From assembly GCA_002839435.1 (NCBI GenBank), contig PGYA01000007.1:14756-78755 (forward strand): DNA of 64,000 nucleotides, written 5' to 3'. Positions 3,232 through 47,022 of the stretch are shown one piece after another; the first letter of the stretch is position 1; each line of letters opens with the position of its first letter. Source of the DNA: Candidatus Riflebacteria bacterium HGW-Riflebacteria-2. GTDB lineage: Bacteria > Muiribacteriota > Ozemobacteria > Ozemobacterales > Ozemobacteraceae. Under the pieces are notes generated by a model. The model did no database searches. It was given only the letters and a program-made list of their open reading frames with translations, and was not told where the DNA came from. Position numbers and translations under genes: made by a program.

Positions 3232-5656
3232 GCTTACGATCGATTACTCTGATGTTCGGGTTCTCATTGGTAACCCTCAGATACAGTCTCATGCTGCGTT
3301 CAAGACCGGCGTAATCAGTTGCCCTGACGTCAATGAACGGAAATCGTTGATTGATAAGCTCACCTTCCTCTGCACCGATAACATCAGGCGGGGTGGGTTC
3401 ACGGAAAACGACGCGAAGCTTGCCGTTAACACTTTCCTGCGTATCGATCGGTACCCGGTAACTGGCGCGTGGATGCTGGTTCGGCACTTCCACCATTATC
3501 TCACCATTATTGATACCGGTAGGAATGGAAACGATATTGTCGAGTTTCGCGCCGGCGCTGTCAATAGTTGCCCACTTGATGTTGTCATCGGTCCAGACAT
3601 CGATCAGATACTCAACGTCTTCCTGTATCATCGCTTTATTTCCAGGCAGTTCCAGCAGCGCAACTACCCTGCGCCCATAACTGTTGCGTTTACCAAAGGT
3701 TTCAATATCAAAATCCTGAGTTGCATCAGCTTGACGCATGTCAGACTGATCGTAAGACTCGAGTCTGAAATGCTTACGTATAAATTCGGGATCCGGGCTT
3801 GTTTTGAAGCGATTCAGCAAAATGCTTCGCTCCGTCGCATGCATTACATCACTATAAAAAATATCAACAATTCGAAAGTACAGGTCCTGACTGCCGTCCT
3901 CGACTCTGCTGCTCAAAAAGGGTATCGAGGTCGTCGGACCAAGAAAATCAACGTAATCAGCAACGTTCATATCGGCCGGTGCCGCTGATGACTTGTATTT
4001 TGTCGAATGAACTATAGTGAAATCGGGATCACCCTGTGGAATGACCGGCGGGAAGAAAATACGGCTGCCATCCTTGACCGATTCAAGCCTGATAACGATA
4101 TTTGGCAGATCGTTGTCGCGGATATTGACATAACCCTGGCCGCGGCGAAAATCAGAATTCAACTTGGCTTCCAGATCGCCCAGATAAACGTCATCAAAGG
4201 CTTCGACCGGGCGAAAATCAACCTGTATCGGCCAACCACGCGCAGCAAGAGGGTGCGTCAGCAGATTAGTATCTATAAGTTCGCCAGCAAAATTAACGTT
4301 AACGCTGCCAACAACCGTTGGTCCGAGACCGTAACAATTGACGGGATCATCATCATAAATCTTTGGATCCCCCGGATTCAAGTTACCGGACTCATCCCAG
4401 GCGTAAACCGTATAACGCATGGCACCATGGCATGAATTAGGCATGATGATATGATCAGTTTCGGCGCCAGACTGGATCACGCTGGGCTTTTCCATGACCC
4501 ATCTCTCTTCGTCTGCCCAGGTGATGGCCGGAGCTGCATCAATCTTGCCAAGCAACAGTGCTGTTCCGATTTTTCCGCCGGAATTGTCTTTGATTCTCAA
4601 GCCTTCAACCCGATACCAGTCACCGCTCGTGGCCGGTCTATTGATGCCAAGTTCAGGGAACTCTCCATCTATGCATCCTTCAATCATCGGTGGAGTTCGA
4701 TCTTTGAAGGTCATTATGAATTCTATTCCACTCTGATTTTCTACTATGGCAGAACCATCTTTTGTGTGCTCACCAATAATTGAAGCCAGATTCTTATAAA
4801 TATTGGGTTCGGTTACGTTGTGCTGGTCTCCCGAAGGTGAAGGATCTGACGGATCGGAAGGGTCGGAAGGGTCTGACGGATCGGAAGGGTCAGAAGGATC
4901 TGGCGGATCGGAAGGATCAGAAGGGTCTGGCGGATCGGAAGGGTCGGAAGGATCAGGCGGATCAGAAGGATCGGAAGGATCAGACGGATCGGAAGGATCG
5001 GAAGGATCAGACGGATCGGAAGGATCGGAAGGATCGGAAGGATCGGAAGGATCTGAAGGCGTCGCTCTGACGCAGGGAGGATATTCACAGAAAGCTCTGT
5101 ATTCCTGGCATGAAATGGCATTGGGCTCGGCCGTAAAAGGTTCAATGTATTTGTAATCTGTGCCCAGACACATAAAATATCTGCGCCGATGCGGATTTTC
5201 TGTATTCTCATAATCTCTAAAACGGAGACCGGCCAGAGGACGAAGTTTTTGCGGACGCCAGAACTCCTCACCGGTATCTTCATCGCGCTGCATGTAGCCA
5301 GAGTCGAGATAAAAATTCAGCAACAGGAAATCAGCAAAATTGATCCGAGCTGTAGAAAAAATCAGACCACCATTGCTGTTGAGCAGACTAAAAAAATCGT
5401 CGGCAGTTCTCTTTCTGGCAAAACCACCAAAGGTACTGCTGATATAGCCCTGATTGACAACCGAATCTTCGCTCGCAACCGTCATCTTGATGCCGGTTAT
5501 CCGGTCAACATCTTCATAGGTATCGACAGGGTTACCAAAGTCACTCTCAATCTGTACCGACTGAAGTATCGACATGGTATAGGCATCCTGAGCCATAACT
5601 CTGCCAGTTATCAGCGTTACGAACAAGAACAGACAAACACAAAACAGTCTTTTCAT
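3215..5656 (-). CDS. large secreted protein (813 aa) with a ~35x Pro-Ser-Asp tandem-repeat linker; possible pilus-associated adhesin
   Basis: Signal peptide MKRLFCVCLFLFVTLITGRVMA. Long (PSD)n low-complexity segment. The start overlaps the stop of the downstream pseudopilin gene, so it is in the same operon. Confidence 0.6.
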   Translation of the reverse strand: MKRLFCVCLFLFVTLITGRVMAQDAYTMSILQSVQIESDFGNPVDTYEDVDRITGIKMTVASEDSVVNQGYISSTFGGFARKRTADDFFSLLNSNGGLIFSTARINFADFLLLNFYLDSGYMQRDEDTGEEFWRPQKLRPLAGLRFRDYENTENPHRRRYFMCLGTDYKYIEPFTAEPNAISCQEYRAFCEYPPCVRATPSDPSDPSDPSDPSDPSDPSDPSDPSDPSDPSDPPDPSDPSDPPDPSDPSDPPDPSDPSDPSDPSDPSDPSDPSPSGDQHNVTEPNIYKNLASIIGEHTKDGSAIVENQSGIEFIMTFKDRTPPMIEGCIDGEFPELGINRPATSGDWYRVEGLRIKDNSGGKIGTALLLGKIDAAPAITWADEERWVMEKPSVIQSGAETDHIIMPNSCHGAMRYTVYAWDESGNLNPGDPKIYDDDPVNCYGLGPTVVGSVNVNFAGELIDTNLLTHPLAARGWPIQVDFRPVEAFDDVYLGDLEAKLNSDFRRGQGYVNIRDNDLPNIVIRLESVKDGSRIFFPPVIPQGDPDFTIVHSTKYKSSAAPADMNVADYVDFLGPTTSIPFLSSRVEDGSQDLYFRIVDIFYSDVMHATERSILLNRFKTSPDPEFIRKHFRLESYDQSDMRQADATQDFDIETFGKRNSYGRRVVALLELPGNKAMIQEDVEYLIDVWTDDNIKWATIDSAGAKLDNIVSIPTGINNGEIMVEVPNQHPRASYRVPIDTQESVNGKLRVVFREPTPPDVIGAEEGELINQRFPFIDVRATDYAGLERSMRLYLRVTNENPNIRVIDRKHEKNR
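4838..5057. repeat. imperfect 9-bp tandem repeat (GGATCGGAA-like units) encoding the (PSD)n linker
   Basis: Direct reading of the sequence shows about 25 tandem 9-mers with point variants (G/A/C at wobble positions). Confidence 0.8.
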
Positions 5657-7152
5657 GCTCCACTCCCTGTCTGGTCATCAATTATGGCATAAGCCATGCC
5701 TTCAAAAGTTTCATTGTCTTTCACTTTACTATAACTCATAATAAGGTCGCGCTCAATACGTTTGACAAATTTCGGGTGCCAGCCAGTAATTTGCGTCGCC
5801 AGACCGCTCAAAACCGCCTCTTCAAAGTCACTTTCATAAGCAGCATATTTGAGCTGCTTACGGGCAAGAGCGACAAAGTAATATGCACGTGAACGTAGAG
5901 AACCACTCTCGAGGCTATAGGTGAGAAAACGCTGAGCGCCCTCGATCTGACCGACTTTAAACAGGCTTATGCCGACTAGATAATTCAACCATGGTACGTT
6001 AAGATCGCGGGCAATACTGACAAGTTCGCCGAGACAATCAACCGGAGATCTAAAAAAAATCACCGGCAGGCATTTAACAAAGGTCCAGGCGGAACCCAGC
6101 GAAAAACGCATCAGCAGATCTTCGCCAGCTTTCCAGGAATAGTAGACAGCCAGCGGAATGAGTGCAATAAAGAAAAGCAGAAGAAGATACGAAGCCATGA
6201 AAGCCATAAAATGGCACTCAAAGCGGAAGCCCAGTGTCTGATAAGTCTTACCGGACTTTTCATTGCGACTGAAACCCAGTGCCATAAGATAGTCTTTCTG
6301 GCCGTAATAACATTCTGAAAACAACGGAAAAAGAGTATCATCATCAGGATTGAGATGATGATATTTCCAGAAATCAACCAGAGCATCATCGTAATCTTTC
6401 AGTTTGAGATGAGCCTTACCACGTAAAAGCAGGTATTCGATACGATCAGGTGAATCGGCGATCAAAACCGTCAATGCGTTGATCGTTTCAAGCATGCGGC
6501 CTTCCAGAAATGCGGTCTCAGCTTTTTCGACAAAGGTCTCGATCTGGTTGATGTGATCGATTCTGGCCTTCAACGCAAGCGCCGGCTTGTAGTCAGGTTC
6601 GCGCTTGAGTATTACATCAAGCATTTCCATGGATCTGACACGGTCGCCCTGCGCAAAAAAACCTTGCGCCCGGTTCATGTAGGAGATCGTCGAATAACTA
6701 TCGAGATCATGCGCTCGACCACTTGAAACATCGACCTGGATTCCCTGTGATTGGTATTCTTCTATTTTTCGGTATATCACGGTTACCCGCTGCATATTTT
6801 CAAGAGCAAACTGGTTTTCTGGCGATAAAGCCAGCATTTCCTGCAGCAGCTTTTCGGCGTCGGGAACATTTTTTGCCGACAGATAAAACTCGATCTGCTG
6901 CTGAAGTTTATCTATTTTTTCATCCAGCGCCCTCTTGAGCTTGTCAGAGAATTCCTTTACTTTTTCGTCATTCGCATCGATTTTTTCGGCACGCTGTAAA
7001 AAATTGCGGGCCTGGACAAGATTACCGTTGTCAAAGGAAACTTCGGCACGGCGGAGATACTCGCGCGCCTGCCCGCTGTACGCCAAAATCGGGGTTGGCA
7101 CCCCAACCATAAGCAATACAAGTATGCATACTATTAAGTAAACTTTTGTCAT
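5653..7152 (-). CDS. TPR-repeat protein with N-terminal signal/anchor and an internal TM segment
   Basis: Signal-like N-terminus. Several TPR-like helical repeats (e.g. ALGFSRNEKSGKTYQTLGF... AKARIDHINQIETFVEKAETAFLEGR). Internal hydrophobic stretch MAFMASYLLLLFFIALIPLAVYY. Confidence 0.55.
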   Translation of the reverse strand: MTKVYLIVCILVLLMVGVPTPILAYSGQAREYLRRAEVSFDNGNLVQARNFLQRAEKIDANDEKVKEFSDKLKRALDEKIDKLQQQIEFYLSAKNVPDAEKLLQEMLALSPENQFALENMQRVTVIYRKIEEYQSQGIQVDVSSGRAHDLDSYSTISYMNRAQGFFAQGDRVRSMEMLDVILKREPDYKPALALKARIDHINQIETFVEKAETAFLEGRMLETINALTVLIADSPDRIEYLLLRGKAHLKLKDYDDALVDFWKYHHLNPDDDTLFPLFSECYYGQKDYLMALGFSRNEKSGKTYQTLGFRFECHFMAFMASYLLLLFFIALIPLAVYYSWKAGEDLLMRFSLGSAWTFVKCLPVIFFRSPVDCLGELVSIARDLNVPWLNYLVGISLFKVGQIEGAQRFLTYSLESGSLRSRAYYFVALARKQLKYAAYESDFEEAVLSGLATQITGWHPKFVKRIERDLIMSYSKVKDNETFEGMAYAIIDDQTGSGA

Positions 7153-7270
7153 TTCCCGCTATTCTAACAGTATACGGCCGGAACCGTACCCTGCTGTCAA
7201 TTCCTGTTACAGAGATAACGTTGAAATCAAGTCGAAAGTTTCATAAGACTTTACAATTATTCGGCAGCTT

Positions 7271-7299
7271 TTGACAATTTTGGCAGCAACTGATAAGAT
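7271..7299 (+). promoter_or_regulatory. sigma70-like promoter upstream of fba (TTGACA-17 bp-TAAGAT)
   Basis: TTGACA at 7271-7276, a 17-nt spacer, then TAAGAT at 7294-7299. The RBS CAGGAGG sits 13 nt before ATG 7359. Confidence 0.45.
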
Positions 7300-7307
7300 G
7301 CGACTGA

Positions 7308-8300
<993 letters not shown>

Positions 8301-8343
8301 TTCATTGCAACCAGACAAAACACAGTGACATAATCGTATGACC

Positions 8344-8371
8344 GTAGGGGTTCAGCCTGCTGAACCCCTAC
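8344..8371 (+). terminator. intrinsic terminator-like hairpin after fba
   Basis: Perfect 12-bp stem GTAGGGGTTCAG/CTGAACCCCTAC with a 4-nt loop, followed by ATTCATTTTGAC. It lies 43 nt after the fba stop codon. Confidence 0.5.
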
Positions 8372-8415
8372 ATTCATTTTGACACCGGGTTGAATTGCGT
8401 CTAGAATATGTATCT

Positions 8416-8922
8416 ATGAATAACCTGAAAACAATATTCTGCCTGTTAACGATCTTTTGTATGGTGCTGATTTTGGCCGGCTGCGGCGGTGGTGGCGGGG
8501 GCAGCAGTGATTACACGCTGTCACCCGAAGAGCTTGAGGTAGCCACAGCAGTCGAAGCATTTGCTGCTGCCGTTAAGACCGAGAACCTTGCTTCTGCCAT
8601 GTCTTACGTTTTTTCTAACCTCAAGTATTTCAATTCGATCAAGCCAGCCGATCACACAGAGTTTCAGAAACGCCTTGAAAATTTGTTCGAAAAAGCCACG
8701 GTTGTAGACTTTACTATTACCAATATCGGCGTCAACATGGGTGGAGAGGATTTTGCTTCGATTATCGGCCAGCTGACACTCGTTTACAGCGTCGATGGAT
8801 CAGTTGCCACACTTAGCGAAAGCATTGACATCAGTTTGGAAAGAGATAGCGGGAAATGGGGCTTTACGCAGATATCCGGCCGCAATGAACTCATGATCAC
8901 CGCTTTTCCACCGGCATTGTAA
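8416..8922 (+). CDS. lipoprotein of unknown function
   Basis: Signal peptide with lipobox LILAGC, then a Gly-rich linker GGGGGGSS. Confidence 0.5.
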   Translation: MNNLKTIFCLLTIFCMVLILAGCGGGGGGSSDYTLSPEELEVATAVEAFAAAVKTENLASAMSYVFSNLKYFNSIKPADHTEFQKRLENLFEKATVVDFTITNIGVNMGGEDFASIIGQLTLVYSVDGSVATLSESIDISLERDSGKWGFTQISGRNELMITAFPPAL

Positions 8923-8949
8923 CAAAATTAACGGGAGGAGCCTGCTCTG

Positions 8950-10368
8950 ATGACCTGCACAGTAGTGCCCGTCGAATCGAAGGATCTGCTGCGACTTGAT
9001 TTTTCGCTGACTCCAGCAGCCTGGAGTGAAGTTGCCGGCGACAATGTTTCGATAATGGCGATCGAGAACGGTCTGGCGATCTTTTCGTTTGCGACCGGAG
9101 CAATGCTTGACAGTGCACCTGCTGATTCCCGCCTGCTGGCAAAATTGCCGACAGCAACTGCTGTTGCGCTGAATCGGCACACCCAGGGAACCGCAGCAGA
9201 AGAAAACCTGCTGTTCAAGTTCGAGCGTTTCGACCTGACCGGGCAATTTGCCGCAGGAATCAGTTTGCAGGCGACCGGCGACACAGCCGGCGCGATAACC
9301 GCATACCAGAAGGTAATAGAGGCTGATGCCGGCGTTGGCAGAGTTTATAATCTGCTTGGTCTGTGTCAGCGCCTGAAAAACGAGACTGCCGCCGCTGAAG
9401 CTTCTTACTACAAGGCACTCGAAGTTTTTGCCGATGCTCCTGATGCCTGGTGCAACCTTGGCATTCTCTACCAGAAAACAGGCCACGACATGAGAGCCCA
9501 GGAGTTTTTCAGCAAAGCACTCAAACGTGATGAGTTTTATTTCAACGCTCTGCTACGACGGGCGGCCTGGTTTCTTGAAACCGGCCAGGTCGCAAATTCT
9601 GAGTTTACCACGCTGAACCTCAGGCTGCTCATGCACTACAGCGAACTGGCAACGGTGCAGCGGCATCTCATCAGCAGTGCCGAGCGTCTCGACATGTCTA
9701 TCGAAGATTACTGCGAACAGCTGCACAGTGACCATGGTATTCTCGCCAACAGCAAAATTCAGCAGTATTTCAGACAAATAGAAGCGTTTATCAACAATGG
9801 CGCCTTTGCTCAGGCAACTGGTTATATACAGATGCTGAGCGGCCTTATTCGACAAATGCATGGTGAACAGCAGATAACCGGGTGGCTGCAACCCAGACTC
9901 AAAAAGATCGGCAGACGGTTTCCGACCGAATCTTCTTATGAATTCGTAAAAGCAGTCAGACAGTTGTCAACACCAGATAACCAGCCGCAGGCATCAGATA
10001 AACCTGAACGCAAACCCTTGACCGGCCCGGAGTTCTTTTCGATGGTACTGCTCGAAATAATGCGTGATGGGCAGATAGAGCCGGCCGAGCAGGAATTGAT
10101 AAAGAAGCTGAAGGCAGCGCTCAATGTTCCTGACGAAATGTTCATGAAAATGTTCAACAACGTCAGGCGTCAGCTTGCCGGCGTAGAACTTTCCGGCGGG
10201 TTACGTGAACGTTTCAGTCATCAGCGCCTGTTCAAAAACCTTTGTCAGGCAGCTTTTCGTGATGGCGTTATCGAAGAATCCGAAAAAAAGATTCTGGGTT
10301 TTGCCTGCCGGGCATTTGGTATATCATCAGAAGAGTTCAAACGAATAATATCCGAGGTTGTCAGATGA
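8950..10368 (+). CDS. TPR-repeat protein with C-terminal TerB-like tandem motifs
   Basis: TPR-like repeats (AITAYQKVIEADAGVGRVYNLLGLCQ... AWCNLGILYQKTGHDMRAQEFFSKALKRD). The C-terminus carries two DG[QV]IE...E..L motifs (DGQIEPAEQELIKKLKAALNVPDEMF and DGVIEESEKKILGFACRAFGISSEEFKRI) typical of the TerB fold. Confidence 0.55.
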   Translation: MTCTVVPVESKDLLRLDFSLTPAAWSEVAGDNVSIMAIENGLAIFSFATGAMLDSAPADSRLLAKLPTATAVALNRHTQGTAAEENLLFKFERFDLTGQFAAGISLQATGDTAGAITAYQKVIEADAGVGRVYNLLGLCQRLKNETAAAEASYYKALEVFADAPDAWCNLGILYQKTGHDMRAQEFFSKALKRDEFYFNALLRRAAWFLETGQVANSEFTTLNLRLLMHYSELATVQRHLISSAERLDMSIEDYCEQLHSDHGILANSKIQQYFRQIEAFINNGAFAQATGYIQMLSGLIRQMHGEQQITGWLQPRLKKIGRRFPTESSYEFVKAVRQLSTPDNQPQASDKPERKPLTGPEFFSMVLLEIMRDGQIEPAEQELIKKLKAALNVPDEMFMKMFNNVRRQLAGVELSGGLRERFSHQRLFKNLCQAAFRDGVIEESEKKILGFACRAFGISSEEFKRIISEVVR

Positions 10369-10946
10369 ACACGGACAATGACCAGCTGGAATCAGAATTC
10401 TCACCACTCGCGATCATCGCCCAGATAAAGACCTACCTGGATGCCGCCGAAATCAGATATCACGACATCGCCGATGATGCGATCGAGCTTTACATGCAGG
10501 GCCACAACCTGACGATGCACGTGGTCGTCTATGTACACAACAATCATCTCATTCTGCGCATACCCGGCTTCATCAGGAACATTGAAATGTACCGATCAGA
10601 CATCATGCAGTTTCTGATGCAGGTAATGAATGATATTCTCGATATCAGGTTCGAAATCGGCAAAGACGGCAAAAGCCTCTCAGCCTGCTGCCAACACATT
10701 CTCGAAGACACCATGATCACCCGACGTCAGTTTGACCTTGCTTTCATGGTGCTGATTCACATTGTTGACGATACTTACCCGCACCTGATGAAACTGATTT
10801 ACCAGTCCGATAGCGCCAATAGTCCAGAAATAGCTGGCGATTTTGCGGAAGCACCAGAGCAAAACAGCCTTGAAGAGGAAGAAAGCGAAGAAACTGAAGA
10901 CTTTGCACCAATCGAAGACAGCGAGCAAACCCGCAAGATTAACTGA
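10365..10946 (+). CDS. YbjN-like (T3SS-chaperone-like) small acidic protein
   Basis: About 190 aa with an acidic C-terminal tail. The pattern of alternating beta/alpha segments resembles the YbjN family. The start overlaps the upstream stop (ATGA), so it is probably translationally coupled. The family assignment is tentative. Confidence 0.4.
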   Translation: MNTDNDQLESEFSPLAIIAQIKTYLDAAEIRYHDIADDAIELYMQGHNLTMHVVVYVHNNHLILRIPGFIRNIEMYRSDIMQFLMQVMNDILDIRFEIGKDGKSLSACCQHILEDTMITRRQFDLAFMVLIHIVDDTYPHLMKLIYQSDSANSPEIAGDFAEAPEQNSLEEEESEETEDFAPIEDSEQTRKIN

Positions 10947-10968
10947 GAAAGAAAAAGGAGCTGCAACA

Positions 10969-12081
10969 ATGACGGCACGCCATATCAGGTCGACAAAACA
11001 CCTTGTCACAATCATGTTTCTCCTCTGCAGCTGTTTTGTGCAGGCGGCCACATTGCAGGTTCCCGAATGGTTCAGCCTCACTGCCCGGCTGGAGCGTGCG
11101 CCGGAACTCAACCAGAGCATTGAACTGCAGGCCGAACTGCAGTCTGTTATAGGCACTCTGAATGATGTTCAGATAAGGCTCATTCTGCCAGAAAGCTGGC
11201 AGGCAGAACCGGAATCAGCCAGAATAAGCGTAATAGAAGCTGGCAGTCGGCACAAGGCCGTTTTCAAGGTAACCCCGGGCAGCTATCTGTCGCAGGGTTC
11301 GATTGTTGTCGAAGCTGCTTTTGTGGTTCCCAAAAGCGAACTGATCGCCCATTTTAACCGCGAAATACCTGAAGATGCCGGCGAACTGAGCGAAACCGTG
11401 CGCCGCTGGCCTGATACTACAAAGCGTTACGTCGACATATCATTCGCCCTGACACCCGAAGAAACATTCTACCCGCTGGCTGATGATATGTGGCTCAGTT
11501 ACGACGATAGAATAATCGTGCATGATGGCTTCCGTGGGCCATCTTATTACGAAGACCCCTTGATCAGCGCTCACCAGGCACAAACTGATGTCGAAATGTT
11601 CGGAAAACTTGAAGAATACATCAAGTCTGACCCCAACCTGCTCGAAACAATGCAGAAATCAGGCATAGACGTCAAGCGCAAGCGCTATGACAAACTAAAT
11701 GGCCTATATGTTCTGGCGGTCAAGGCTTATCAGGATAACAGCCTCGATATGGCAGGCAATTTTATCGAGCAGTTTGAGTCTGCCATAAAATCTGAACCGG
11801 CGACGGCATACGAAAACCTGAGAATTGCCGCCGGTAACATCAGGGGCCTTGTATTCTGGGGCAAAGGGCAGCGCCGGCTGGCCGAAGAAGCATTTAAGAA
11901 AACCTTTTACAGCAATCGCAAGCACCCACTGCAACGCTACATACTGCGCAACATCGGTCTGCTCATGCTGGCCGGCAAAGACGCCGCAACCGCCGGCGAA
12001 ATGTTAAGACTGGCACGTGGCTTCAAAAAAGGCTACACATTACTCGACAAGGAAAGCGAGCTGCTTGGCAAGAACAGATAA
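10969..12081 (+). CDS. secreted protein of unknown function
   Basis: RBS AAAGGAG 8 nt upstream of ATG 10969. Signal peptide MTARHIRSTKHLVTIMFLLCSCFVQAATLQ. Confidence 0.5.
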   Translation: MTARHIRSTKHLVTIMFLLCSCFVQAATLQVPEWFSLTARLERAPELNQSIELQAELQSVIGTLNDVQIRLILPESWQAEPESARISVIEAGSRHKAVFKVTPGSYLSQGSIVVEAAFVVPKSELIAHFNREIPEDAGELSETVRRWPDTTKRYVDISFALTPEETFYPLADDMWLSYDDRIIVHDGFRGPSYYEDPLISAHQAQTDVEMFGKLEEYIKSDPNLLETMQKSGIDVKRKRYDKLNGLYVLAVKAYQDNSLDMAGNFIEQFESAIKSEPATAYENLRIAAGNIRGLVFWGKGQRRLAEEAFKKTFYSNRKHPLQRYILRNIGLLMLAGKDAATAGEMLRLARGFKKGYTLLDKESELLGKNR

Positions 12082-14538
12082 ATGGACGCAGTAAATGAAC
12101 TGTTCAACGACCTGAAATCTCCTGATCCGGCGATCAGGTTTTCGGTTCTTTCGCGAATCGAAGACATGGCCTGGTCAGATGAGCATAAAGAGGCTTTTCG
12201 CAAGATTTTTGCCGGCGAAAAAGACCCTGGCATTCGTTTTCACATGCAGAAAGTTCTCGCCAGGCTCGATAGCGGCGACAAAAACCGCGGCAGCCTTGAG
12301 GCCATTGAAGAACAGCTGCAAAACCCGTTGCGTGACGAAATAAACCTGGCCCTGATGCTGGAATCGGTCAAGCGCAACGAAGCCGCCGCTGTGGCCGAAA
12401 GCCTGCGCCGTGCCGAATGGCCAAAATTCTCGCAGCAGCTGCTGCCCTCGGTGTTAAAGTTTCTCAAAAAATACGGGGCGGCAGAAGATACGCCGGCCAT
12501 CGAAAAACTGTGCCGTCACCATGATCCCCGCGTTCTCAGCGCTGCCATCGAAGCTCTTGAAAAGCACAACCCCGAGCGCCTCAAAGCCCTGATAGTTCCG
12601 CTGCTGATCAACAGCAATTTCGGTATCAGATCGCGGGCCGTGCGCCTGCTACATCGCTGGGACCCATCAGAAGCATTGCGTCACTTTGAGTCGATGCTGT
12701 TTTCGAATCTCGAAACAGAGAAACATGCGGCGCTTTATCAGGCGTTCTTTTTTCCTTTCAAACAGATAGAGACTCTCATGTTGCGCTATATAAGTGTCGA
12801 GAGCGAGCCTGAGATGATCAAAAAGGCCGGACTGATATTTATGACCAACCCGGAACGCCACATTCCGGCCCGGCTGCTCGAGGTTCGTCAGGCCTGCACA
12901 GGTATCAAGCAAAGACTGGTCGATGTGATACTCAAAGGCGTTCTGCAGTCACTCTTTCAGGCCAGAATAGTAAATGCCGCACCAGAACAGATGCTGCAGG
13001 TGCTCGAAACACATTTCAAGGAAAAGCGCATCAGGCTTTTCATAGATCACCATGGCAACGCGCTGAAGTCGCCAGAAGCAGCTGTGCGTCTGCAATCAGC
13101 CCTCAAGCTGAGCGAAATCGCAAGACGCGGTGCTGAAGAAGCCAGACAGGTGGTCGAAGCATACCTGCCGCACGAACGCGACCTTAACAATGTCAGAAAA
13201 GTCAGATATTTTCTTGAGACCGGTCAGCTTGAAATTCAAAAAACCGCTGAAACTGAGCCTCCAAAGCAGCCGTCACCGCCAAAGCCTGTGCCAACCGGAG
13301 CATCAGCCAAGCCCGCGGCTGAAAACAAAATTTCGCCGGACTCCGGGGCAGCCGTCGTCAAAACCGAAAAACCAGCCAGTAAGACTGTCGAGAAGCGGCT
13401 CTTACAGGAATATACCGCAAGAGAACGGCAAAACTTCATTTCTGCGATTTCTGCTGAAAACTACGAGCAGTACATGGCTATTATCAGACCATTTTTCCGG
13501 GAAATGGACGTAAATGAGCAGATAGCGGTGATCAAACGCATCGAAAGATTTGGCGGCCAGTCGGATTCAGAGCTTCTCATCGGCTGTCTTCATAGCGACG
13601 ATGAAAACATTCTTGAGTCAACCATTGAAGCTCTCAGCGTCATCAACCCGGAAGCGCTGCACCCCTATCTGCCACAGCTTATCAAGCATCGCTACGACGA
13701 AGTAAAGCTGGCGGCCATAAAGGTTTTTTCGCTGTTTGACAAAAAACAGGCCATCTCTCTCGTCGAAAACATGTTGCTGTCTATCAAGCCGGCACAGCGC
13801 CAGACTGCCTTATTCTGCCTCGGCAGTTTCGACTATCACTCGGTCAGCCAGATTCTTATCAATGCCTTCAAAAGTGAGAATGACAGCGAAAATCTGAAGC
13901 AGATAAGCTCCATTCTGCGCTCAAATGCCGACGAAGACACTTTTTTCCGACTGTATGTAGACTACCAGGCCTGCAAATCTTCAAAAAGGGACGAATATGA
14001 GAAACTGTGCCGGGAACTCGCCGCCACAATCGTCGAAGCTGAGCCAGGCCGACCGATAGAGGCACTTTTCTCTGCCGGCGAAGAGATGGTAGCCGAAGAA
14101 GAGCGCAAGAAAACTGAACGCGCCGCCTATAAACTCGAAAAAATTCAGAAAATACGCGAAAACGTCGACAAAACAGTGGTCATTGATGCTTCGCTGGCCA
14201 GATTTACGGTTATCTCTTATGGCGTTGGCGCAGTATTGACCGCGCTTATCTGGTTTCTCTTTCTGGCGCCACCACCACCGCTGCCGCCTGATGCTTCGCC
14301 CAGGGCAACAACTGCCCGCAAAGTTATGGAGACAATTACCATAAAAGGACGAGTTGTTATTTCAGATAAAGCTCAACGCATTGTCGCAATAGAAACTGAA
14401 CCGGGCAGATTATACAAAATGCAGCTGCCCGAAAACTTCGGCAGGATGCCTGAGCCCGGTTCCAATTTTCAGGCTCAGATCAGAGCTGAAAAAGACAGCA
14501 GCGGCGAAATAGCGGCCGAATTTCTGACCGCCTTCTGA
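12082..14538 (+). CDS. HEAT/PBS-lyase-like repeat protein with a C-terminal TM helix and a small extracytoplasmic domain
   Basis: Repeated DPxxR/IRxxA HEAT-like units (DPAIRFSVLSRI, DPGIRFHMQKVL, DPRVLSAAIEALEKH, DENILESTIEALSVI). TM segment FTVISYGVGAVLTALIWFLFLA is followed by PPPPLPP and a ~100-aa tail. Confidence 0.55.
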   Translation: MDAVNELFNDLKSPDPAIRFSVLSRIEDMAWSDEHKEAFRKIFAGEKDPGIRFHMQKVLARLDSGDKNRGSLEAIEEQLQNPLRDEINLALMLESVKRNEAAAVAESLRRAEWPKFSQQLLPSVLKFLKKYGAAEDTPAIEKLCRHHDPRVLSAAIEALEKHNPERLKALIVPLLINSNFGIRSRAVRLLHRWDPSEALRHFESMLFSNLETEKHAALYQAFFFPFKQIETLMLRYISVESEPEMIKKAGLIFMTNPERHIPARLLEVRQACTGIKQRLVDVILKGVLQSLFQARIVNAAPEQMLQVLETHFKEKRIRLFIDHHGNALKSPEAAVRLQSALKLSEIARRGAEEARQVVEAYLPHERDLNNVRKVRYFLETGQLEIQKTAETEPPKQPSPPKPVPTGASAKPAAENKISPDSGAAVVKTEKPASKTVEKRLLQEYTARERQNFISAISAENYEQYMAIIRPFFREMDVNEQIAVIKRIERFGGQSDSELLIGCLHSDDENILESTIEALSVINPEALHPYLPQLIKHRYDEVKLAAIKVFSLFDKKQAISLVENMLLSIKPAQRQTALFCLGSFDYHSVSQILINAFKSENDSENLKQISSILRSNADEDTFFRLYVDYQACKSSKRDEYEKLCRELAATIVEAEPGRPIEALFSAGEEMVAEEERKKTERAAYKLEKIQKIRENVDKTVVIDASLARFTVISYGVGAVLTALIWFLFLAPPPPLPPDASPRATTARKVMETITIKGRVVISDKAQRIVAIETEPGRLYKMQLPENFGRMPEPGSNFQAQIRAEKDSSGEIAAEFLTAF

Positions 14539-14594
14539 TTTGTCGCCAGCCCTTTTGCATTGACTTGCCGGCAAAAAGGCTATATATTTTTTCC

Positions 14595-14945
14595 ATGAGT
14601 AACTTTACCGTCAAAACAGAAAATAACAGCGACATTTTTATCGTGCGCTCGAGCGGTTACCTCGACGAAAGCGGCGGTGCTGCAGTCTTTGAGGCAGTAC
14701 AGAACACCCTGCCGGATGACTGTCACAAGGTCATTCTCAATCTTAAAGACTCACCGGTCATCAACTCACAGGGAATCGCCCAGCTCATCGAGCTCAGCGA
14801 AATAATCGTCGATGACAAGGGCGGGGAACTGGCTTTTGTCGGCCTCAGCGACCTGACTTATGGCGTATTTAAGATGGTAGGCCTGCTGCAGATGGGAAAC
14901 CCCTTTGAAAGCGAATCTGAAGCAATAGAAGCGATGCGCCAGTAA
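14595..14945 (+). CDS. STAS-domain anti-sigma-factor antagonist (SpoIIAA-like)
   Basis: About 115 aa. Contains the STAS pattern VILNLKDSPVINSQGIAQLIEL...ELAFVGLSDLTYGVFKMVGL. Confidence 0.65.
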   Translation: MSNFTVKTENNSDIFIVRSSGYLDESGGAAVFEAVQNTLPDDCHKVILNLKDSPVINSQGIAQLIELSEIIVDDKGGELAFVGLSDLTYGVFKMVGLLQMGNPFESESEAIEAMRQ

Positions 14946-15015
14946 AGGTAGACGAAAAGCTGTAAATCAGATATATTTAAGGTAAGGTACACAAAAAGAC
15001 AAGGAGGTCTTAACT

Positions 15016-15801
15016 GTGGTTATCAAGGCAACAAATTCCAACAGGCTGCACAGCAGCCTTATAAAAAGTGAAGAGGCCAGAAGCAAAACCCTCGACCGAC
15101 TGGCAACAGGCAAAAAAATAAACAGTGCCAGCGACGACCCGGCCGGTTTATCAATGGTGATGAGCCTCGAATCGCAGACACGAGGTCTGCTGATGGGCAT
15201 TAACAACCGCCAGGACGAAATTTCCCTGCTGCAGACTGCCGAAGGGGCTTTGAGCTCGACCGGCGACATGCTGCAACGGATGAATGAACTGGCAGTTCAG
15301 GCTGCCAACGGCACATTGACCAGCGAAGACCGCAGCAATATTCAGCTCGAAATAGATCAGCTGGCACAACAGGTCGATCAGACTGCCAGCAACACCGTTT
15401 ACAATGATAAAAAGCTGCTTGACGGCAGTTTCAGCATTGAACTGCAGGGCGGTGAAACCATGTCGCTGCCGGCCGCCAGTGCCGAAGCACTCGGAGTAAA
15501 TTCGCTGAATCTGACTGCCAATGCCGAACAGGCAATTGGCCAGGTCAGTCAGGCCATCAATAACGTTGCAACCCAACGTGGCACGATCGGTGCCACCATC
15601 AACGGCATAAGTTCTCAGATTGCCGGGCTGCAGAGTGAGCTTATCAACACAACTGCTTCACAGTCACGCATCGAAGACGCCGATATCGCGGCAGAACTGA
15701 TCAACATGAATATGCAGGCGCTACAGTCCAAAGCAGCCATACAGGCGTTCAAAATGCAGGACGAAAACCGCGCGACCGTTCTCAAACTCATCAACGGCTG
15801 A
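15016..15801 (+). CDS. fliC: flagellin (short, 261 aa)
   Basis: GTG start with RBS AAGGAGG. The N-terminal flagellin signature is RLATGKKINSASDDPAGLSM. The C-terminal signature is QSRIEDADIAAELINMNMQALQSKAAIQAFKMQ. Confidence 0.8.
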   Translation: MVIKATNSNRLHSSLIKSEEARSKTLDRLATGKKINSASDDPAGLSMVMSLESQTRGLLMGINNRQDEISLLQTAEGALSSTGDMLQRMNELAVQAANGTLTSEDRSNIQLEIDQLAQQVDQTASNTVYNDKKLLDGSFSIELQGGETMSLPAASAEALGVNSLNLTANAEQAIGQVSQAINNVATQRGTIGATINGISSQIAGLQSELINTTASQSRIEDADIAAELINMNMQALQSKAAIQAFKMQDENRATVLKLING

Positions 15802-16278
15802 TTACAGTGAGAGTGGTTTGAATTCCGGCTGAAACTTGAGCGGGCGACTCGCGATCGCAGCCTTTACCTGCTCAATGCTTTTGCCATGCCCCATCCCCGA
15901 GAAACTGCCGTCCGCTTCGACGGGCCAGCTGCCCTGAGGCGAGTTGAACACTTCATAATGATTATCGACAGCGCGCAAAAAAAGCAGGTAGCTTTTGCCT
16001 TCAACGAAATCGACGTTGTCTTCGATGCCGCGCCAGGTTCGGATTCTGATTTTTTCACCGGCGGCACTACCACCCTTGAGGCATTCTTTTATCTCAAACA
16101 GGCTCGCCACAACCTCTACCCCGTCAGTTTTCGTTTCGCCAGCCCGAACGCCGGCGATTCTGCCGCTCACTACCAGATCAGCACCCTGTGCGAGCTGCTC
16201 AAGACTCAAAGTTTCAATCATTGCATATCCTCCCATGCTCAACATCACCAGAAACAGTGTCAGGGCGAGATTTTTCAT
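15802..16278 (-). CDS. small secreted protein of unknown function
   Basis: RBS GGAGGAA before ATG 16278. Signal peptide MKNLALTLFLVMLSMGGYAM. Confidence 0.45.
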   Translation of the reverse strand: MKNLALTLFLVMLSMGGYAMIETLSLEQLAQGADLVVSGRIAGVRAGETKTDGVEVVASLFEIKECLKGGSAAGEKIRIRTWRGIEDNVDFVEGKSYLLFLRAVDNHYEVFNSPQGSWPVEADGSFSGMGHGKSIEQVKAAIASRPLKFQPEFKPLSL

Positions 16279-16382
16279 GCTTTCCTCCATCGGCGGGCGT
16301 CTGATCGACTCCAACATTGTAACAGTTTTTCGCGACGGGATAAAGCGTTGACAATAACGCCCGGGGTTGAGATTATTTAATT

Positions 16383-18494
16383 ATGCACTCAATGCTGTCT
16401 CGATCATCAAATTTAATAAAACGTAATGGCTTTGCCATAATGTTTGCCGTCGTCATCGGCACTGTCATGCTTATTCTGGCAGTGTCACTTTACACATTCG
16501 TCGGGCACCAGCACACTGGAATTCAAAGCATAGTCAACGGCGAAATCGCGCATTTTCTTGCTGAAGCAGGCATCAACAGCAGCATAGGCTCAGTACGTGA
16601 GGCCGTCGCCAAAGTTATGTCCGGCACTTCGGGCAACCAGCAGCTCAACGAAATACTGCTAAAACCCGGTGATCTCGATGATGTCTGTATCAATGACATG
16701 CTCGATGCCAACTGGAACCGCGACCTCGAAGAGTTTGCGCGCGAAATGGACAAAGATGCCTCGATCAAAGTCGAAGTCTGGCTGAGAGATTTCAGCAACT
16801 GCGAAACCGCGCCTGGCAGCTGGGCCGACCCGGTTGCCAAAGACGGTCATCTGGTAATTGAATCGACAGGCACCTTCAAGGGCAGCAGCCGGGTAATTCT
16901 GGTCAAGCGCAGAGTAAGAGTGGGAAATACCGTTCCCGCCTGGCTGAGCAAGTTCAGCCTGTTCGTCAACGATGCCGCCCGCGCCGGCGAAGGCGGCTTC
17001 AACCTTATCCGTAACGACTACCGCGGTATGATAACCGACGGCCCTAAGGCGCTGATTGTCTACAACCACGCCACCCCTGACGCGCCCTTCGAGGCCGGCA
17101 ACATGAGCGATATTCTGCGCGAAGAAGGCGATAAAGACATCTGGCAACGCCGCGGCTGGCTCTGGATGGGAGGCCGGCGCAGCCGGCTGAATCTCTGTTC
17201 CGGCGCCGGCGATCTCGGCGAAATATTCCATTTTTACGATGTCAGCAACCCGAATATCTTTTCGCCGGTCAAGTTCTCGACACCGGCAGAAGCTCTTCCC
17301 GAAGCTTTTTCTACGTCGCTGATGATTCCGTGGGACAAAAGCGACACCTCAGTCCGCCAGGTCAGTTACAGATTCGGGCACAGTTTCGTGCTCGATGGCT
17401 TTCACGACCGCAGCAACCGCAAAGAAAGCGACGCGATGTACGAAGGCAACATCCTTTCAACTGGTGAAAAAAACTCCTATTCATCTAAATCATCGATTCT
17501 GCACCTGTTCGGTGATGCGCGCAAGGGTTACCAGTCGCGCACCCGCGTGTTTGGCAACGTTCACATCGCTTTCCCGCGCTATGCCAGCCTTGAAGTAAAA
17601 GCTGACGAACCCGACGTCGAGGCACTCTTTACCGCGGTCAACCCGCCGCCGCTTTATCTGCTGCCTTCGGTTTCAGAGAGCGCCTGGCACAATTCGATCA
17701 TGATTCAAGACATCATGGGCCGCAAGTTTGGCGGGCCGTTACTGCAATCAGGCATGCTCTGCCGCAGTTACGCTGACTACGCGCAACTGATGAGCCGAAT
17801 CAGCGAACTGCCTTATGCTGAATCCTACAACAGCATGCAGGACGTCTACAGTAATAAGGCCGGCCGGGTGTTTCCATCAGATGCCAGCATTCTTGCCATG
17901 GACAACGGCCTCAACCTCGAAATTTCGCGCGACAGTCACGTTTTTTTCAAGGGCCGACCGACAGCACAGGGACTGCTTCAGGTTATAGACAACCGCACAC
18001 AAATCGAAGTCGATTCGATAAACGATTTCTGGAAACGTTTTCTCAATGAGCGCGATGAGCTTGAGCTCAATGCCATAGTCAGTATAAAGAATCCGCGTCA
18101 GCTCGACATGCAGATTCCAGCCGCCGGCAAACCACAACCGATGACAGTAAAAGGCGGCGGAATGATCATACTCCGGCAGGGCAACCTGGTATTGCGCGGC
18201 ATCAGCTGTGCATCACCCGACGAGGCACTGACCGTCGTTCTCGCCGGTAACGGTTCGGTAAGCTTTTCTTCGACGCAGCCCAATCATGTAAACATTGTTG
18301 CGCCCAACGCCGAGCTGGGTTATGGTTCTAAATTCGACATGTATGGCTCCATGTGCGTCGGCTCTATCTACGCCGACCATCGTTTTCAGGGCGGCACCCT
18401 GCGCTTTCGCCCCGGCCAGGATCCTGCCACTTCCGGTTACAACCGATATTACAAGGTATTTATCGATCCCAAGGATTCATTCTGGAATGAATAA
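16383..18494 (+). CDS. large (703 aa) PilX/GspK-like minor pilin / putative pilus-tip protein
   Basis: N-terminal anchor KRNGFAIMFAVVIGTVMLILAVSLYTF is PilX_N-like with no Glu5. It is followed by a large globular region and lies directly upstream of two canonical pseudopilin genes. Confidence 0.5.
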   Translation: MHSMLSRSSNLIKRNGFAIMFAVVIGTVMLILAVSLYTFVGHQHTGIQSIVNGEIAHFLAEAGINSSIGSVREAVAKVMSGTSGNQQLNEILLKPGDLDDVCINDMLDANWNRDLEEFAREMDKDASIKVEVWLRDFSNCETAPGSWADPVAKDGHLVIESTGTFKGSSRVILVKRRVRVGNTVPAWLSKFSLFVNDAARAGEGGFNLIRNDYRGMITDGPKALIVYNHATPDAPFEAGNMSDILREEGDKDIWQRRGWLWMGGRRSRLNLCSGAGDLGEIFHFYDVSNPNIFSPVKFSTPAEALPEAFSTSLMIPWDKSDTSVRQVSYRFGHSFVLDGFHDRSNRKESDAMYEGNILSTGEKNSYSSKSSILHLFGDARKGYQSRTRVFGNVHIAFPRYASLEVKADEPDVEALFTAVNPPPLYLLPSVSESAWHNSIMIQDIMGRKFGGPLLQSGMLCRSYADYAQLMSRISELPYAESYNSMQDVYSNKAGRVFPSDASILAMDNGLNLEISRDSHVFFKGRPTAQGLLQVIDNRTQIEVDSINDFWKRFLNERDELELNAIVSIKNPRQLDMQIPAAGKPQPMTVKGGGMIILRQGNLVLRGISCASPDEALTVVLAGNGSVSFSSTQPNHVNIVAPNAELGYGSKFDMYGSMCVGSIYADHRFQGGTLRFRPGQDPATSGYNRYYKVFIDPKDSFWNE

Positions 18495-18930
18495 GACACA
18501 GCGTAGCGGCTTATCAATGATTGAAATCGTCTTTTCGATCGGCATACTTGCCCTGATCATGCTGCCTGTGTTCATGACGTTTTCGAGTGGCAACCGCAAT
18601 ATACAGCTGACAGACTCAGAATTCAGGGCACACACAGCCGCGATCGAGCTGATGGAACAGATTGTTTCGCTGCCGTTCGGCCAGATAAAAAGCGGTGAAT
18701 ATGACAGTGACACGATTATCGACGGCGGGCAGTTTGCCGACGGCCCGGTTTTGTTCAAGCTTTCGCCAGTCGAAGATCTCAGGCACACATTGAAAATTGA
18801 GGATATCAAACGTGACGGCAAAACTCTGTTCAAGAAAGTCACGGTAACGATAAAGTTTGCCGCGGCGCCTGGTTCAGACCGTATCCGCGAATTTTTCATG
18901 AAAACGCTGGTGGCCAATGAAAACCTGTAA
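18487..18930 (+). CDS. pseudopilin (prepilin N-terminal motif)
   Basis: Start MNKTQRSGLSMIEIVFSIGILALIML contains the G-LSMIE motif with Glu5. ATG 18487 overlaps the stop of the upstream gene. Confidence 0.6.
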   Translation: MNKTQRSGLSMIEIVFSIGILALIMLPVFMTFSSGNRNIQLTDSEFRAHTAAIELMEQIVSLPFGQIKSGEYDSDTIIDGGQFADGPVLFKLSPVEDLRHTLKIEDIKRDGKTLFKKVTVTIKFAAAPGSDRIREFFMKTLVANENL

Positions 18931-19498
18931 AACCCGGGCATTTACACTGGTCGAAATTATTGTCGTCTGCGGCATAGTTACCGTTTTTCTCGGCACGGCC
19001 ATTATGCTTTTCACCAACTTCCGGCGAGGCTTCAGCCGCAGTGAAGGCACGGCGGTCCTGATGCAGGATGGCGCCCTCTTTCTGGCGCGCCTGCGCACCG
19101 ATCTTAACAACGCGGTTATAGCGCCCGACGCTTCCGGCGGCACCCCGGCCCAGATCAATACAACTCCCGATCAGCTGAGCTTTATGGTTTACAGCAGTCG
19201 TGAGGCGAAAGCCCTGCCGGTAATCTACCGCTATCTGGCCGCAGAGAACGGCGGCAGTATTTTTCGGCGCGAGGGCGGCGAGAAAGAGCGCGAACTGATA
19301 AAGGATCGCGTCGCATCTCTCACCTGGCAGACCGAACTGGAAAGGTTTGTAGAACCTGATAGTACTGGTTCCGGCACCATAAGGCTCAGCATTGGCCTCG
19401 ACATGAAACTTAAAATGAAAAGTGGCGACGAGAAACCTTTTTCGCTGAAAACCTCTATTTTCCCGGCCCGTCTCAATCGTCAGCTCAACTCGCCCTGA
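18917..19498 (+). CDS. pseudopilin (prepilin N-terminal motif)
   Basis: MKTCKTRAFTLVEIIVVCGIVTVFLGTAIML carries the classic A-FTLVEI motif. Confidence 0.65.
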   Translation: MKTCKTRAFTLVEIIVVCGIVTVFLGTAIMLFTNFRRGFSRSEGTAVLMQDGALFLARLRTDLNNAVIAPDASGGTPAQINTTPDQLSFMVYSSREAKALPVIYRYLAAENGGSIFRREGGEKERELIKDRVASLTWQTELERFVEPDSTGSGTIRLSIGLDMKLKMKSGDEKPFSLKTSIFPARLNRQLNSP

Positions 19499-19577: not shown

Positions 19578-20789
19578 ATGACACAGAAATGGCTGATCCT
19601 GGTGAGCATACTGCTTTTCACTGCTTTTGCTCCAGTTTATGGGCAGAGCGGCAGTTATCTCGACAGCATCTACAGCGCAGACGGCCAGGGCACCTCAGCC
19701 ATAGCTGACGAACCCGAAACCCGATATGTAGACGACAGCGATAATCCTCCCGAAGTCGTTGACGTCCCGGAACCAACTGGTGACCCGGCACAACAGAAAG
19801 CCCTCGAACGCCTGCAGAACATCATCAATCAGATCATGCGTATAATTGGCGGTAAAATGTGCGGCGCCAGAATTGTCGTGGTGGTAATTCCCTGCGAAAA
19901 AATAGTGCCAAAGCCCAAGCCCCCGGTAACCAGCACATCGACTTCTACTGCTACCTCGACCTCGACTGCGACCTCTACCGGCACGCAGACCTCTACCAGC
20001 ACAACCACTTCGACAAGCACGCAGACCTCGACGAGCACATCGACTTCGACCGCCACCTCTACTGGCACGCAAACCTCTACCAGCACAGCGACTTCGACCG
20101 GAACTTCAACGGCGACGGCGACGGCCACTTCCACCAGCACCGGCACCAGCACGGCAACAGGCAAAGAAGCAGTACGTGCCGCTATCCGGCAAAAATACGG
20201 CATAAATGCCGCCGATGGCCAGAATCAGACCTGGAGCGAAAATCAGCTGCGGGCAGCTGACGAAGCACTTGCTTCCTTACCATCGTTCTTCCGCAAGTGC
20301 ACCGATACAGTCTATCGTGACGGCCCGCCATACGACTCGAGAATACCACCCAGCGCCGCGGCCTATGTTATAGTGCCTCAGCACAAAGTTCATATGCTCG
20401 ATCTCAGCGCCCAGATGACACAGGGCGCCTACAATTCGCTGGTAGCGGCCTATGGACGCGCACCAACCACCGAAGAGCAGATGGCCTATCTCAAGCATAA
20501 TTTCAAACGCACTCTGGTGCATGAGATGACGCACTGTTTCCAGAATACCTACCCACAGGTCATGCAGAACTGGAGCAGACAATTCTGGCCGGGTGGCCGC
20601 CTCGTCGGACAGTGCCCAACCGGTTATGGTCGCACTCAGCCGGTTGAAGACATGTCAGAATCGGTAGCCACCTACTGGACCGGCGGCTCGATCAAAAATG
20701 GCGTATTCGTTTCAAGAAGCGGTGCCACCATGGATCTCGAACGCTACAACTTCATCAAGCAATACATCATGGATGGCAAGGAATACTGA
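19578..20789 (+). CDS. secreted HExxH zinc-metallopeptidase-like protein with a Thr/Ser-rich linker
   Basis: RBS GGGGGAGG. Signal peptide. A ~75-aa (T/S/A/G)n linker. The C-terminal domain has LVHEMTHCF (HExxH) and a downstream EDMSES motif with a candidate third Zn-ligand Glu. Confidence 0.55.
   Translation: MTQKWLILVSILLFTAFAPVYGQSGSYLDSIYSADGQGTSAIADEPETRYVDDSDNPPEVVDVPEPTGDPAQQKALERLQNIINQIMRIIGGKMCGARIVVVVIPCEKIVPKPKPPVTSTSTSTATSTSTATSTGTQTSTSTTTSTSTQTSTSTSTSTATSTGTQTSTSTATSTGTSTATATATSTSTGTSTATGKEAVRAAIRQKYGINAADGQNQTWSENQLRAADEALASLPSFFRKCTDTVYRDGPPYDSRIPPSAAAYVIVPQHKVHMLDLSAQMTQGAYNSLVAAYGRAPTTEEQMAYLKHNFKRTLVHEMTHCFQNTYPQVMQNWSRQFWPGGRLVGQCPTGYGRTQPVEDMSESVATYWTGGSIKNGVFVSRSGATMDLERYNFIKQYIMDGKEY
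19927..20160. repeat. degenerate tandem repeat of ACN/TCN codons encoding the Thr/Ser linker
   Basis: Repeated units such as acctcgac / acctctac / acttcgac are visible in the sequence. Confidence 0.7.
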
Positions 20790-20806
20790 GCTGAAAGGAT
20801 CAAGCA

Positions 20807-39681: not shown

Positions 39682-39846
39682 ATTTGTTTGTCAAAAAATT
39701 TTGCTCTAGTGTAAAAAGTATTTTCGAGAATTAACTACAACCCATATCAGCTACAGTGTATAATATAAGAGAGACAGCGAAAACACAGCCGGATTCTGGC
39801 ATGGTTGTTGCGACATAAAAGCTGGTTGGGCGAGAAGGGGTTGCGT

Positions 39847-47013: not shown

Positions 47014-47022
47014 GGAGCAACC

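Follow-up and report, generated by a model that had tools for sequence, protein, structure and literature searches.

What holds together a string of small regulatory and chaperone-like proteins that runs, on a single strand, into a flagellin gene? The case considered here comes from Candidatus Riflebacteria bacterium HGW-Riflebacteria-2 (contig PGYA01000007.1), in a stretch of 64,000 nucleotides that we analysed as a whole and call the window; coordinates are those of the window unless a related locus is named. Six forward-strand genes (8416–14945), encoding a lipoprotein, a TPR-TerB protein, a YbjN-like protein, an exported or anchored protein (gene 4), a HEAT protein with a transmembrane (TM) helix and a STAS protein, are followed by a flagellin gene, and an earlier interpretation made from the DNA alone (below, the sequence-only reading) had treated them as one string ending at the flagellin. 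According to our analysis, the four genes from TPR-TerB to HEAT-TM form a core that selection has kept together as a unit, whereas the STAS and flagellin genes are its ordinary syntenic neighbours. With a probability of about 0.5, we propose that the core belongs to a phylum-restricted, envelope-spanning scaffold module that is an accessory of pseudopilin-like gene sets.

The listing of open reading frames (ORFs) bears out the compact, co-directional layout that had been described. The lipoprotein gene (gene 1, 168 amino acids [aa], 8416–8922) is followed by gene 2 (TPR-TerB, 472 aa, cytoplasmic, 8950–10368), gene 3 (YbjN-like, i.e., similar to class I type III secretion chaperones, 193 aa, 10365–10946), gene 4 (370 aa, 10969–12081), gene 5 (HEAT-TM, 818 aa, 12082–14538), the STAS gene (SpoIIAA/RsbV-like, 116 aa, 14595–14945) and, after an AAGGAGG, the flagellin gene fliC (GTG start, 261 aa, 15016–15801), all on the + strand. 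Genes 2 and 3 overlap by an ATGA (10365–10368), genes 4 and 5 abut in a TAAATG (12079–12084), and the gaps between the first five genes are all short. Contigs from ENA, JGI and Logan, the longest of them 225 kb, contain the same locus.

Gene order was compared across 56 loci, recovered by a degenerate-pattern scan of the GTDB species genomes with the HEAT alignment, in which neighbours were identified by tblastn of the window proteins. All 56 loci have a gene content of the Riflebacteria/Ozemobacteraceae type, even though a few of the metagenome-assembled genomes (MAGs) carry other labels. The conserved block comprises, in order, a TPR-membrane protein gene on the − strand, an aldolase gene, the lipoprotein, TPR-TerB, YbjN-like, gene 4, HEAT and STAS genes and fliC; it is found in 28 of the 32 species loci having enough downstream sequence, and it is kept down to 36–39% HEAT identity, Ca. 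Ozemobacter sibiricus (L047) included. The order predicted to be conserved in relatives is thus conserved indeed. Yet the class II aldolase gene, the HrpB helicase gene and the divergent TPR/pilin operon likewise hold their position across the phylum, and since such housekeeping genes do so too, a conserved order does little to show that the operon and the flagellin belong together functionally. Two complete Riflebacteria blocks, with an aldolase 88–90% identical, occur in MAGs labelled Erysipelotrichia (L013, SABV01000004.1) and Ca. Methylomirabilis (L019, DYKG01000028.1), which are probably mislabelled or contaminated.

The loci in which the order is broken are more telling than those in which it is kept. 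In L021, STAS remains beside HEAT, and fliC lies 6 kb away together with the gene of a 162-aa protein. In L027, HEAT and STAS are separated by an AraC/GyrI-like gene of opposite orientation, the adjacency of STAS and fliC being preserved, and in L028, L034 and L035/L064 neither STAS nor fliC is present within 10 kb. Only TPR-TerB, YbjN-like, gene 4 and HEAT stay together in the deep lineages L034 and L064, where they have unrelated neighbours (in one of them a two-component system and phosphotransferase system genes, in the other a cyclase, adenine deaminase and FtsQAZ). The lipoprotein gene, which about 30 related loci have next to the core, is absent there as well. Because the four genes stand alone in L034 and L064, and because STAS and fliC can be separated from them (L021, L027, L028), the core is the functional unit, and the idea of a string that functionally ends at the flagellin is not supported. 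As to L034 itself, an NtrC-type histidine kinase and a sigma-54-type response regulator are encoded directly 5′ of the core operon (2965–6646 of that locus), and the intergenic region upstream of the core contains repeated TTTGCAAA motifs.

Transcription signals divide the string at the same places. On the + strand, candidate promoters were sought with a consensus scan, scored out of 12 hexamer positions, and the strongest matches lie directly 5′ of gene starts. A terminator-like hairpin with a 12-bp stem and a T-rich tail (8344–8371, + strand) closes the upstream aldolase unit and marks the 5′ boundary, a GC-rich hairpin being present 3′ of the aldolase gene in many related loci. It is followed by P1 (TTGACA-N17-TAGAAT, 8379–8407, 11/12, the best match in the region), which ends 8 nt before the lipoprotein ATG and is kept in the closest genera; in the scan, this one promoter and this one upstream terminator serve all five operon genes. 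P2 (TTGACT-N17-TATATT, 14560–14588, 10/12) ends 6 nt before the STAS ATG, and a TTGACA-N17-TAnnAT element precedes the STAS ATG by 6–8 nt in 29 out of 29 orthologous loci. P3 (TAGACG-N17-TATATT, 14949–14977, 9/12) precedes fliC, where TnGACn-N17-TATATTTA is found in 32 out of 32 loci; a sigma-28 promoter was considered for this gene and rejected, as the conserved element does not match the sigma-28 consensus in any of the 32. Because these conserved sigma-70-type promoters partition the string, we predict three transcription units: the lipoprotein-to-HEAT operon, a leaderless STAS gene, and fliC with its own promoter and 5′ untranslated region (5′UTR). A single operon through to the flagellin was rejected on account of the internal promoters, the insertion in L027 and the relocation in L021, and with promoters before STAS and fliC across the phylum the string is not one transcription unit. 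The scan found no terminator-like site among the lipoprotein–HEAT unit, STAS and fliC, so that read-through is possible. The STAS gene and, nearly so, the lipoprotein gene start 6–8 nt after a consensus −10 hexamer without a Shine-Dalgarno sequence (14560–14597 and 8379–8418), from which a leaderless mRNA is predicted for the former and a near-leaderless one for the latter. No known RNA element was detected in 7000–17000.

The flagellin is an ordinary filament gene whose flagellar partners are probably encoded elsewhere. Its product matches Flagellin_N (115 bits, 4e-33) and Flagellin_C (43 bits, 7e-11) in Pfam, is minimal (D0-D1 only) and has filament flagellins as its best PDB matches, several of them of 265–286 aa, with E-values down to 7e-39; across the phylum, it shows 45–89% identity (tblastn), and its termini are conserved in 31 orthologues. 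In having only D0-D1 and strong terminal-domain matches it is like the Bacillus Hag-type and other minimal filament flagellins of that size, from which it differs by scoring below every NCBIfam equivalog cut-off and by its sigma-70-like, not sigma-28-like, promoter. In a flagellated lineage, a flagellin gene lying apart from other flagellar genes is unremarkable. The sequence-only reading had described it as solitary, which is correct in that no other flagellar gene was found among the scanned window ORFs of at least 150 aa, many of them without any Pfam match, but it is not solitary biologically: FlgV, which occurs “without exceptions” inside flagellar superoperons, has “Ozemobacteria” among its carriers (PMC11607428), and the Riflebacteria are for this reason most likely flagellated. 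The co-option of a flagellin in a non-flagellated lineage is not supported, given the superoperons indicated by the literature and the normal, well-conserved D0-D1 flagellin.

Two further observations concern the immediate surroundings of fliC. Its 5′UTR (14978–15015) can form a small hairpin, (T)AGAC-AAGGAG-GTCT(A), whose loop contains the Shine-Dalgarno sequence together with a GGA motif (predicted fold −8.4 kcal/mol, z −1.9), which resembles the CsrA-binding sites on flagellin mRNAs of other bacteria; it is kept at equivalent positions in L004–L014, L018, L023 and L029 and is absent in more distant clades. On the 3′ side, the fliC stop abuts the stop of the convergent gene (15799–15804), leaving no room for a terminator; this − strand gene (15802–16290) encodes the secreted 162-aa protein, which has no family match and moves with fliC in L021 (14234–15566).

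Turning to the operon proteins, Pfam, NCBIfam and PADLOC profiles reveal no enzyme domain in any of the five, and the core is an enzyme-free four-gene operon of interaction folds. Anti-phage defence was considered and discarded, PADLOC having returned nothing beyond weak matches of a generic HEAT or TerB-like kind. The lipoprotein has an L-A-G-C lipobox followed by a Gly run, conserved in 34 orthologues, then a linker rich in Gly and perhaps an NTF2/SnoaL-like domain (SnoaL_3, at 18.7 bits, does not reach the cut-off of 22). In gene 2, TPR repeats at about residues 95–215 (TPR_1, 5e-13) are joined to a C-terminal 100-aa region in which the TerB assignment proposed earlier passes the Pfam cut-off (PF05099, 28.9 bits vs. 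24.4), the match covering 43 of the 118 profile positions (74–116); its two DGxxxxxE motifs (RDGxIExxE twice) are conserved in 33 orthologues. This duplicated motif is shared with TerB of the tellurite-resistance cluster and with the N-terminal domain of DjlA, from which gene 2 differs by aligning to the last third of the profile, by its fusion to TPR repeats and by lacking Ter partners and a J domain.

The YbjN assignment of gene 3, along with its relation to type III secretion chaperones, also stands: PF10722 is reached marginally (22.2 bits vs. a cut-off of 22.0), several orthologues have a precomputed PF10722 match, and the protein adopts the alpha/beta fold of class I type III secretion chaperones. 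In the AlphaFold2 model, the confidence score (pLDDT) of the core exceeds 90, and a disordered tail begins at residue 151. The fold is that of CesT, SicP and ExsC and of E. coli YbjN, Erwinia AmyR and Deinococcus DR_1245; compared with these proteins, gene 3 shows only 7–15% identity and no sequence-level PDB match, lacks an injectisome context, is found in one candidate phylum and carries an acidic low-complexity tail (10815–10946). The last residues of this tail are an invariant (R/L)KIN-COOH, before which many orthologues have FAP, and they might form a short linear motif that docks to a TPR or HEAT partner. Gene 4 is predicted to consist of an N-terminal hydrophobic helix, a beta-sandwich (Ig-like, 35–161) and a TPR domain (201–368), with a pLDDT of 89.7, and it too has no sequence-level PDB relatives. 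Finally, gene 5 contains two HEAT blocks (HEAT_2, 2e-21), presumably cytoplasmic, one TM helix (~708–730) and a conserved beta-rich C-terminal domain of ~85 aa, the helix and the domain being kept in paralogues as well. The TM helix previously described as a C-terminal anchor is thus not a terminal one, and the PPPPLPP motif said to follow it, like the Pro-rich linker, is found in the closest relatives only; we rejected this motif as a functional feature, since it is not conserved.

The core families appear to be confined to the candidate phylum Riflebacteria in nearly all cases, and the few named exceptions look like mislabelled MAGs. All 82 homologues of the HEAT-TM protein belong to Riflebacteria. 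Among the 77 homologues of gene 3, the source names are all Riflebacteria except for two probably mislabelled MAGs, and a profile built from 23 of these homologues found 13 representatives at E ≤0.001 among 1.84 billion proteins. For gene 4 (91 homologues), the only source names given are Riflebacteria/Ozemobacteraceae. In no other phylum has the density of conserved unknown gene families been reported to be as high as in Riflebacteria (PMC10849945), and this locus is a concrete and well-delimited example.

What the core might do is suggested by the paralogues of its largest member. The scan with the HEAT alignment also recovered HEAT paralogues in the same genomes as the orthologues, each directly followed by the gene of a ~720–770-aa protein and by two small genes with a class III signal peptide (G|FTLxE); in the motif scan, the pilin-like pair lies 2.1–3.2 kb downstream in five independent paralogue groups, and in the loci where gene ends were read (L051, L060, L062) the genes of the set overlap or abut. 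The large proteins beside the paralogues are homologous to the product of a 684-aa gene of the window (hhalign probability 98.4%, E 5e-15, 596 columns) and are not homologous to the window's other large protein, encoded upstream at 3215–5656 (813 aa), which was therefore discarded as a relative of this family. The window gene (684–703 aa, 16383–18494, + strand) encodes a GspK-like N-terminal hydrophobic segment, has no Pfam match (T2SSK included) and is preceded by P4 (TTGACA-N17-GATTAT, 16348–16376, + strand, 10/12); behind it, two small genes encode pilin-like proteins of 137 and 193 aa (18517–19498, + strand), the second with AFTLVEII. At the core locus, such a pair is found 3.9–4.6 kb downstream of HEAT, from which it is separated by STAS, fliC and the gene of the 162-aa protein. 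The tight linkage of HEAT paralogues, large proteins and pilin-like genes recurs in a way that is unlikely to be due to chance, and it is the only recurrent functional association that we found for any component of the core. The HEAT family is repeatedly associated with pilus-like sets and not with flagella; taken by itself, a functional link of the module to pili is a tentative proposition, which we hold at somewhat less than even odds.

These sets recall the minor-pseudopilin tip sets of type II secretion and type IV pili (GspH-I-J-K and FimU-PilVWX), which likewise combine a large protein having a GspK-like N-terminus without Glu5 with two small G|FTLxE proteins. They differ from them by the lack of a nearby ATPase, platform protein or secretin, by the missing T2SSK match and, for the paralogue sets, by being headed by a HEAT-TM protein, for which we know of no counterpart in described systems.

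Combining these results, the module could be pictured as follows. The HEAT protein would span the inner membrane and offer a cytoplasmic alpha-solenoid platform for the recruitment of the TPR-TerB protein and of the chaperone-fold adaptor, the latter possibly via its C-terminal RKIN peptide, whereas the small periplasmic domain of the HEAT protein would contact the periplasmic TPR protein (gene 4) and the lipoprotein. The whole would act as an assembly or regulatory platform for type-IV-filament-like pseudopilin sets made of a GspK-like large protein and two pilin-like proteins. We infer the membrane topology, the binding partners and the role in pseudopilus assembly from protein architecture and gene neighbourhood. 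If the pseudopilin link holds, the HEAT-TM family, which recurs at the head of pilin-like operons, would be part of a lineage-specific machinery underlying the unusually large set of pilin-like genes in this uncultivated phylum.

Several points weigh against this scaffold proposal. The interactions and the expression of the operon are predictions from sequence, and the whole region, aldolase and HrpB included, is so unusually syntenic that order alone says little. No paralogue of gene 3 or gene 4 was found beside the HEAT paralogues at E ≤0.01, so that the link is carried by the HEAT family. In the Ozemobacter sibiricus clade and in the deepest lineages, the core has no pseudopilin set in its vicinity, and pseudopilin-like sets are frequent in the genome (about one per 20 kb), which raises the background of chance adjacency. 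Moreover, neither the window nor the annotated loci contain a pilus ATPase, a platform protein, a prepilin peptidase or a secretin. Finally, the flagellation of the phylum, which allows fliC to be an ordinary gene, rests on one literature sentence, and we found no direct statement on flagella or motility in the literature on Riflebacteria.

A bolder version of the scaffold proposal would see in the core an undescribed envelope-spanning apparatus unique to Riflebacteria, in which the chaperone-fold protein and the alpha-solenoids deliver or license pseudopilins or possibly flagellin. This would amount to a new coupling of cytoplasmic chaperoning to filament assembly, with no dedicated ATPase in the operon, and we give it an outside chance.

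A comparably small chance goes to a regulatory pairing of STAS and flagellin, perhaps independent of the operon, in which phosphorylation of the STAS Ser would steer flagellin expression or motility by partner switching. The STAS assignment itself is sound. PF01740 is matched with 41.3 bits (1.4e-10), and in an alignment to SpoIIAA the Ser of the NSQG motif stands opposite the first Ser of DSSG, which we take to be the phosphorylated Ser58; this Ser is invariant in 29 STAS orthologues, as is the SPVINSQG around it. The protein thus resembles SpoIIAA, RsbV and HsbA in being a single STAS domain with a conserved phosphorylatable Ser, and it differs from them by scoring below NCBIfam TIGR00377 (35.5 bits vs. 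a cut-off of 53.45), by its predicted leaderless mRNA and by the lack of a kinase or phosphatase gene nearby. Besides the invariant Ser, the pairing is favoured by the adjacency that persists in L027, where the insertion separates both genes from HEAT, by the missing terminator-like site between them and by a precedent for STAS control of motility, HsbA binding FlgM in Pseudomonas aeruginosa (HsbA-FlgM-FliA; PMC6482189). Against it, in L021 STAS stays by HEAT as fliC moves, and the sigma-70-like fliC promoter gives no indication of the FlgM/FliA route. In addition, the anti-sigma factor or serine kinase that the sequence-only reading suggested looking for on the contig did not turn up: no RsbW-like kinase is present among the scanned window ORFs, and no kinase, anti-sigma factor or PP2C phosphatase lies within 10 kb in any annotated related locus that we inspected. 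STAS would then be a module for partner switching with a kinase or phosphatase encoded at another locus.

Less probable again is a module devoted to the flagellum itself, with the TPR-TerB and YbjN-fold proteins acting as flagellin chaperones or export adaptors and HEAT-TM, the periplasmic TPR protein and the lipoprotein forming a motor or collar scaffold. PflA/PflB and FlcA are TPR proteins of other phyla that would be comparable to such a scaffold. The adjacency of HEAT, STAS and fliC in 28 of the 32 species loci speaks for it, as do the type III secretion chaperone fold of gene 3 and the weak LcrH/SycD-like matches obtained for the TPR proteins in profile searches. The fold of gene 3 is however of the class I alpha/beta type, unlike the known flagellar export chaperones (FliS, FlgN, FliT), which to our knowledge are all-helical. 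Furthermore, fliC has its own conserved promoter and relocates without the core in L021, and the core exists without a nearby fliC in L028, L034 and L064. The HEAT paralogues sit with pilin-like genes, without any flagellar gene at the three annotated paralogue loci, and no flagellar gene other than fliC was seen in the ~60 loci inspected. Taken together, a flagellar module is distinctly unlikely.

We regard as more doubtful still a membrane or metal stress-sensing module, in which TerB would sense an envelope or metal signal and the other proteins relay it, with no link to pili or flagella. YbjN-family proteins have been linked to stress and regulatory phenotypes, and Pfam annotates the family as putative sensory transduction regulators; the TerB match above cut-off, its conserved acidic motifs and a DjlA-like profile match of gene 2 point the same way. 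However, no TerC, TerD, TerZ or DjlA-type J (DnaJ) domain was found in the window or in related loci, the operon has no output domain (kinase, cyclase or DNA-binding), and the association of the HEAT family with pilin-like genes would be left unexplained. Finally, that the genes share no function and are neighbours because the region is rarely rearranged in the phylum, as the stable positions of aldolase, HrpB and the divergent TPR/pilin operon might suggest, is highly improbable given the overlap of genes 2 and 3, the abutting genes 4 and 5, the short gaps throughout, the single promoter and upstream terminator for five genes, and the cohesion of the core even where all of its neighbours have been replaced.

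Sets of a large protein and two or three small prepilin-like proteins occur several times in the window, at 1432–7152 (− strand), 16383–19498 and 39805–47688, as well as in L066 (14137–18618). One of them is headed by a TPR membrane protein (5653–7152), and another has a member of 1968 aa that begins like a pilin (GFTLAEILVA) and carries Kelch repeats at its C-terminus; the upstream − strand set holds its position across the phylum. Downstream of the pilin-like pair, two adjacent genes (19578–22162) encode proteins of 403 and 451 aa that are mutual paralogues with signal peptides and no family match, and this gene pair is conserved at that place in related loci too. In the JGI copy of the locus (L002, 16836–18715), the 193-aa and 403-aa genes are broken into shorter ORFs compared with the ENA copy (L001, 16836–18708); as the two contigs are identical otherwise, either indels of the assembly or real frameshifts are indicated.

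Elsewhere in the window, two pairs of small ORFs (35297–35819 and 36264–36527) look by eye like RelE/ParE/YafQ toxin-antitoxin modules, and a Uma2-family nuclease gene is located at 47952–48578. Two tandem HAMP-adenylate/guanylate cyclase genes of ~980 aa each occupy 53890–59722 (− strand), and in L066 a GAF-cyclase gene (11208–12881) closes the upstream pilin-like operon; these HAMP- and GAF-cyclase genes suggest heavy cyclic-nucleotide signalling.

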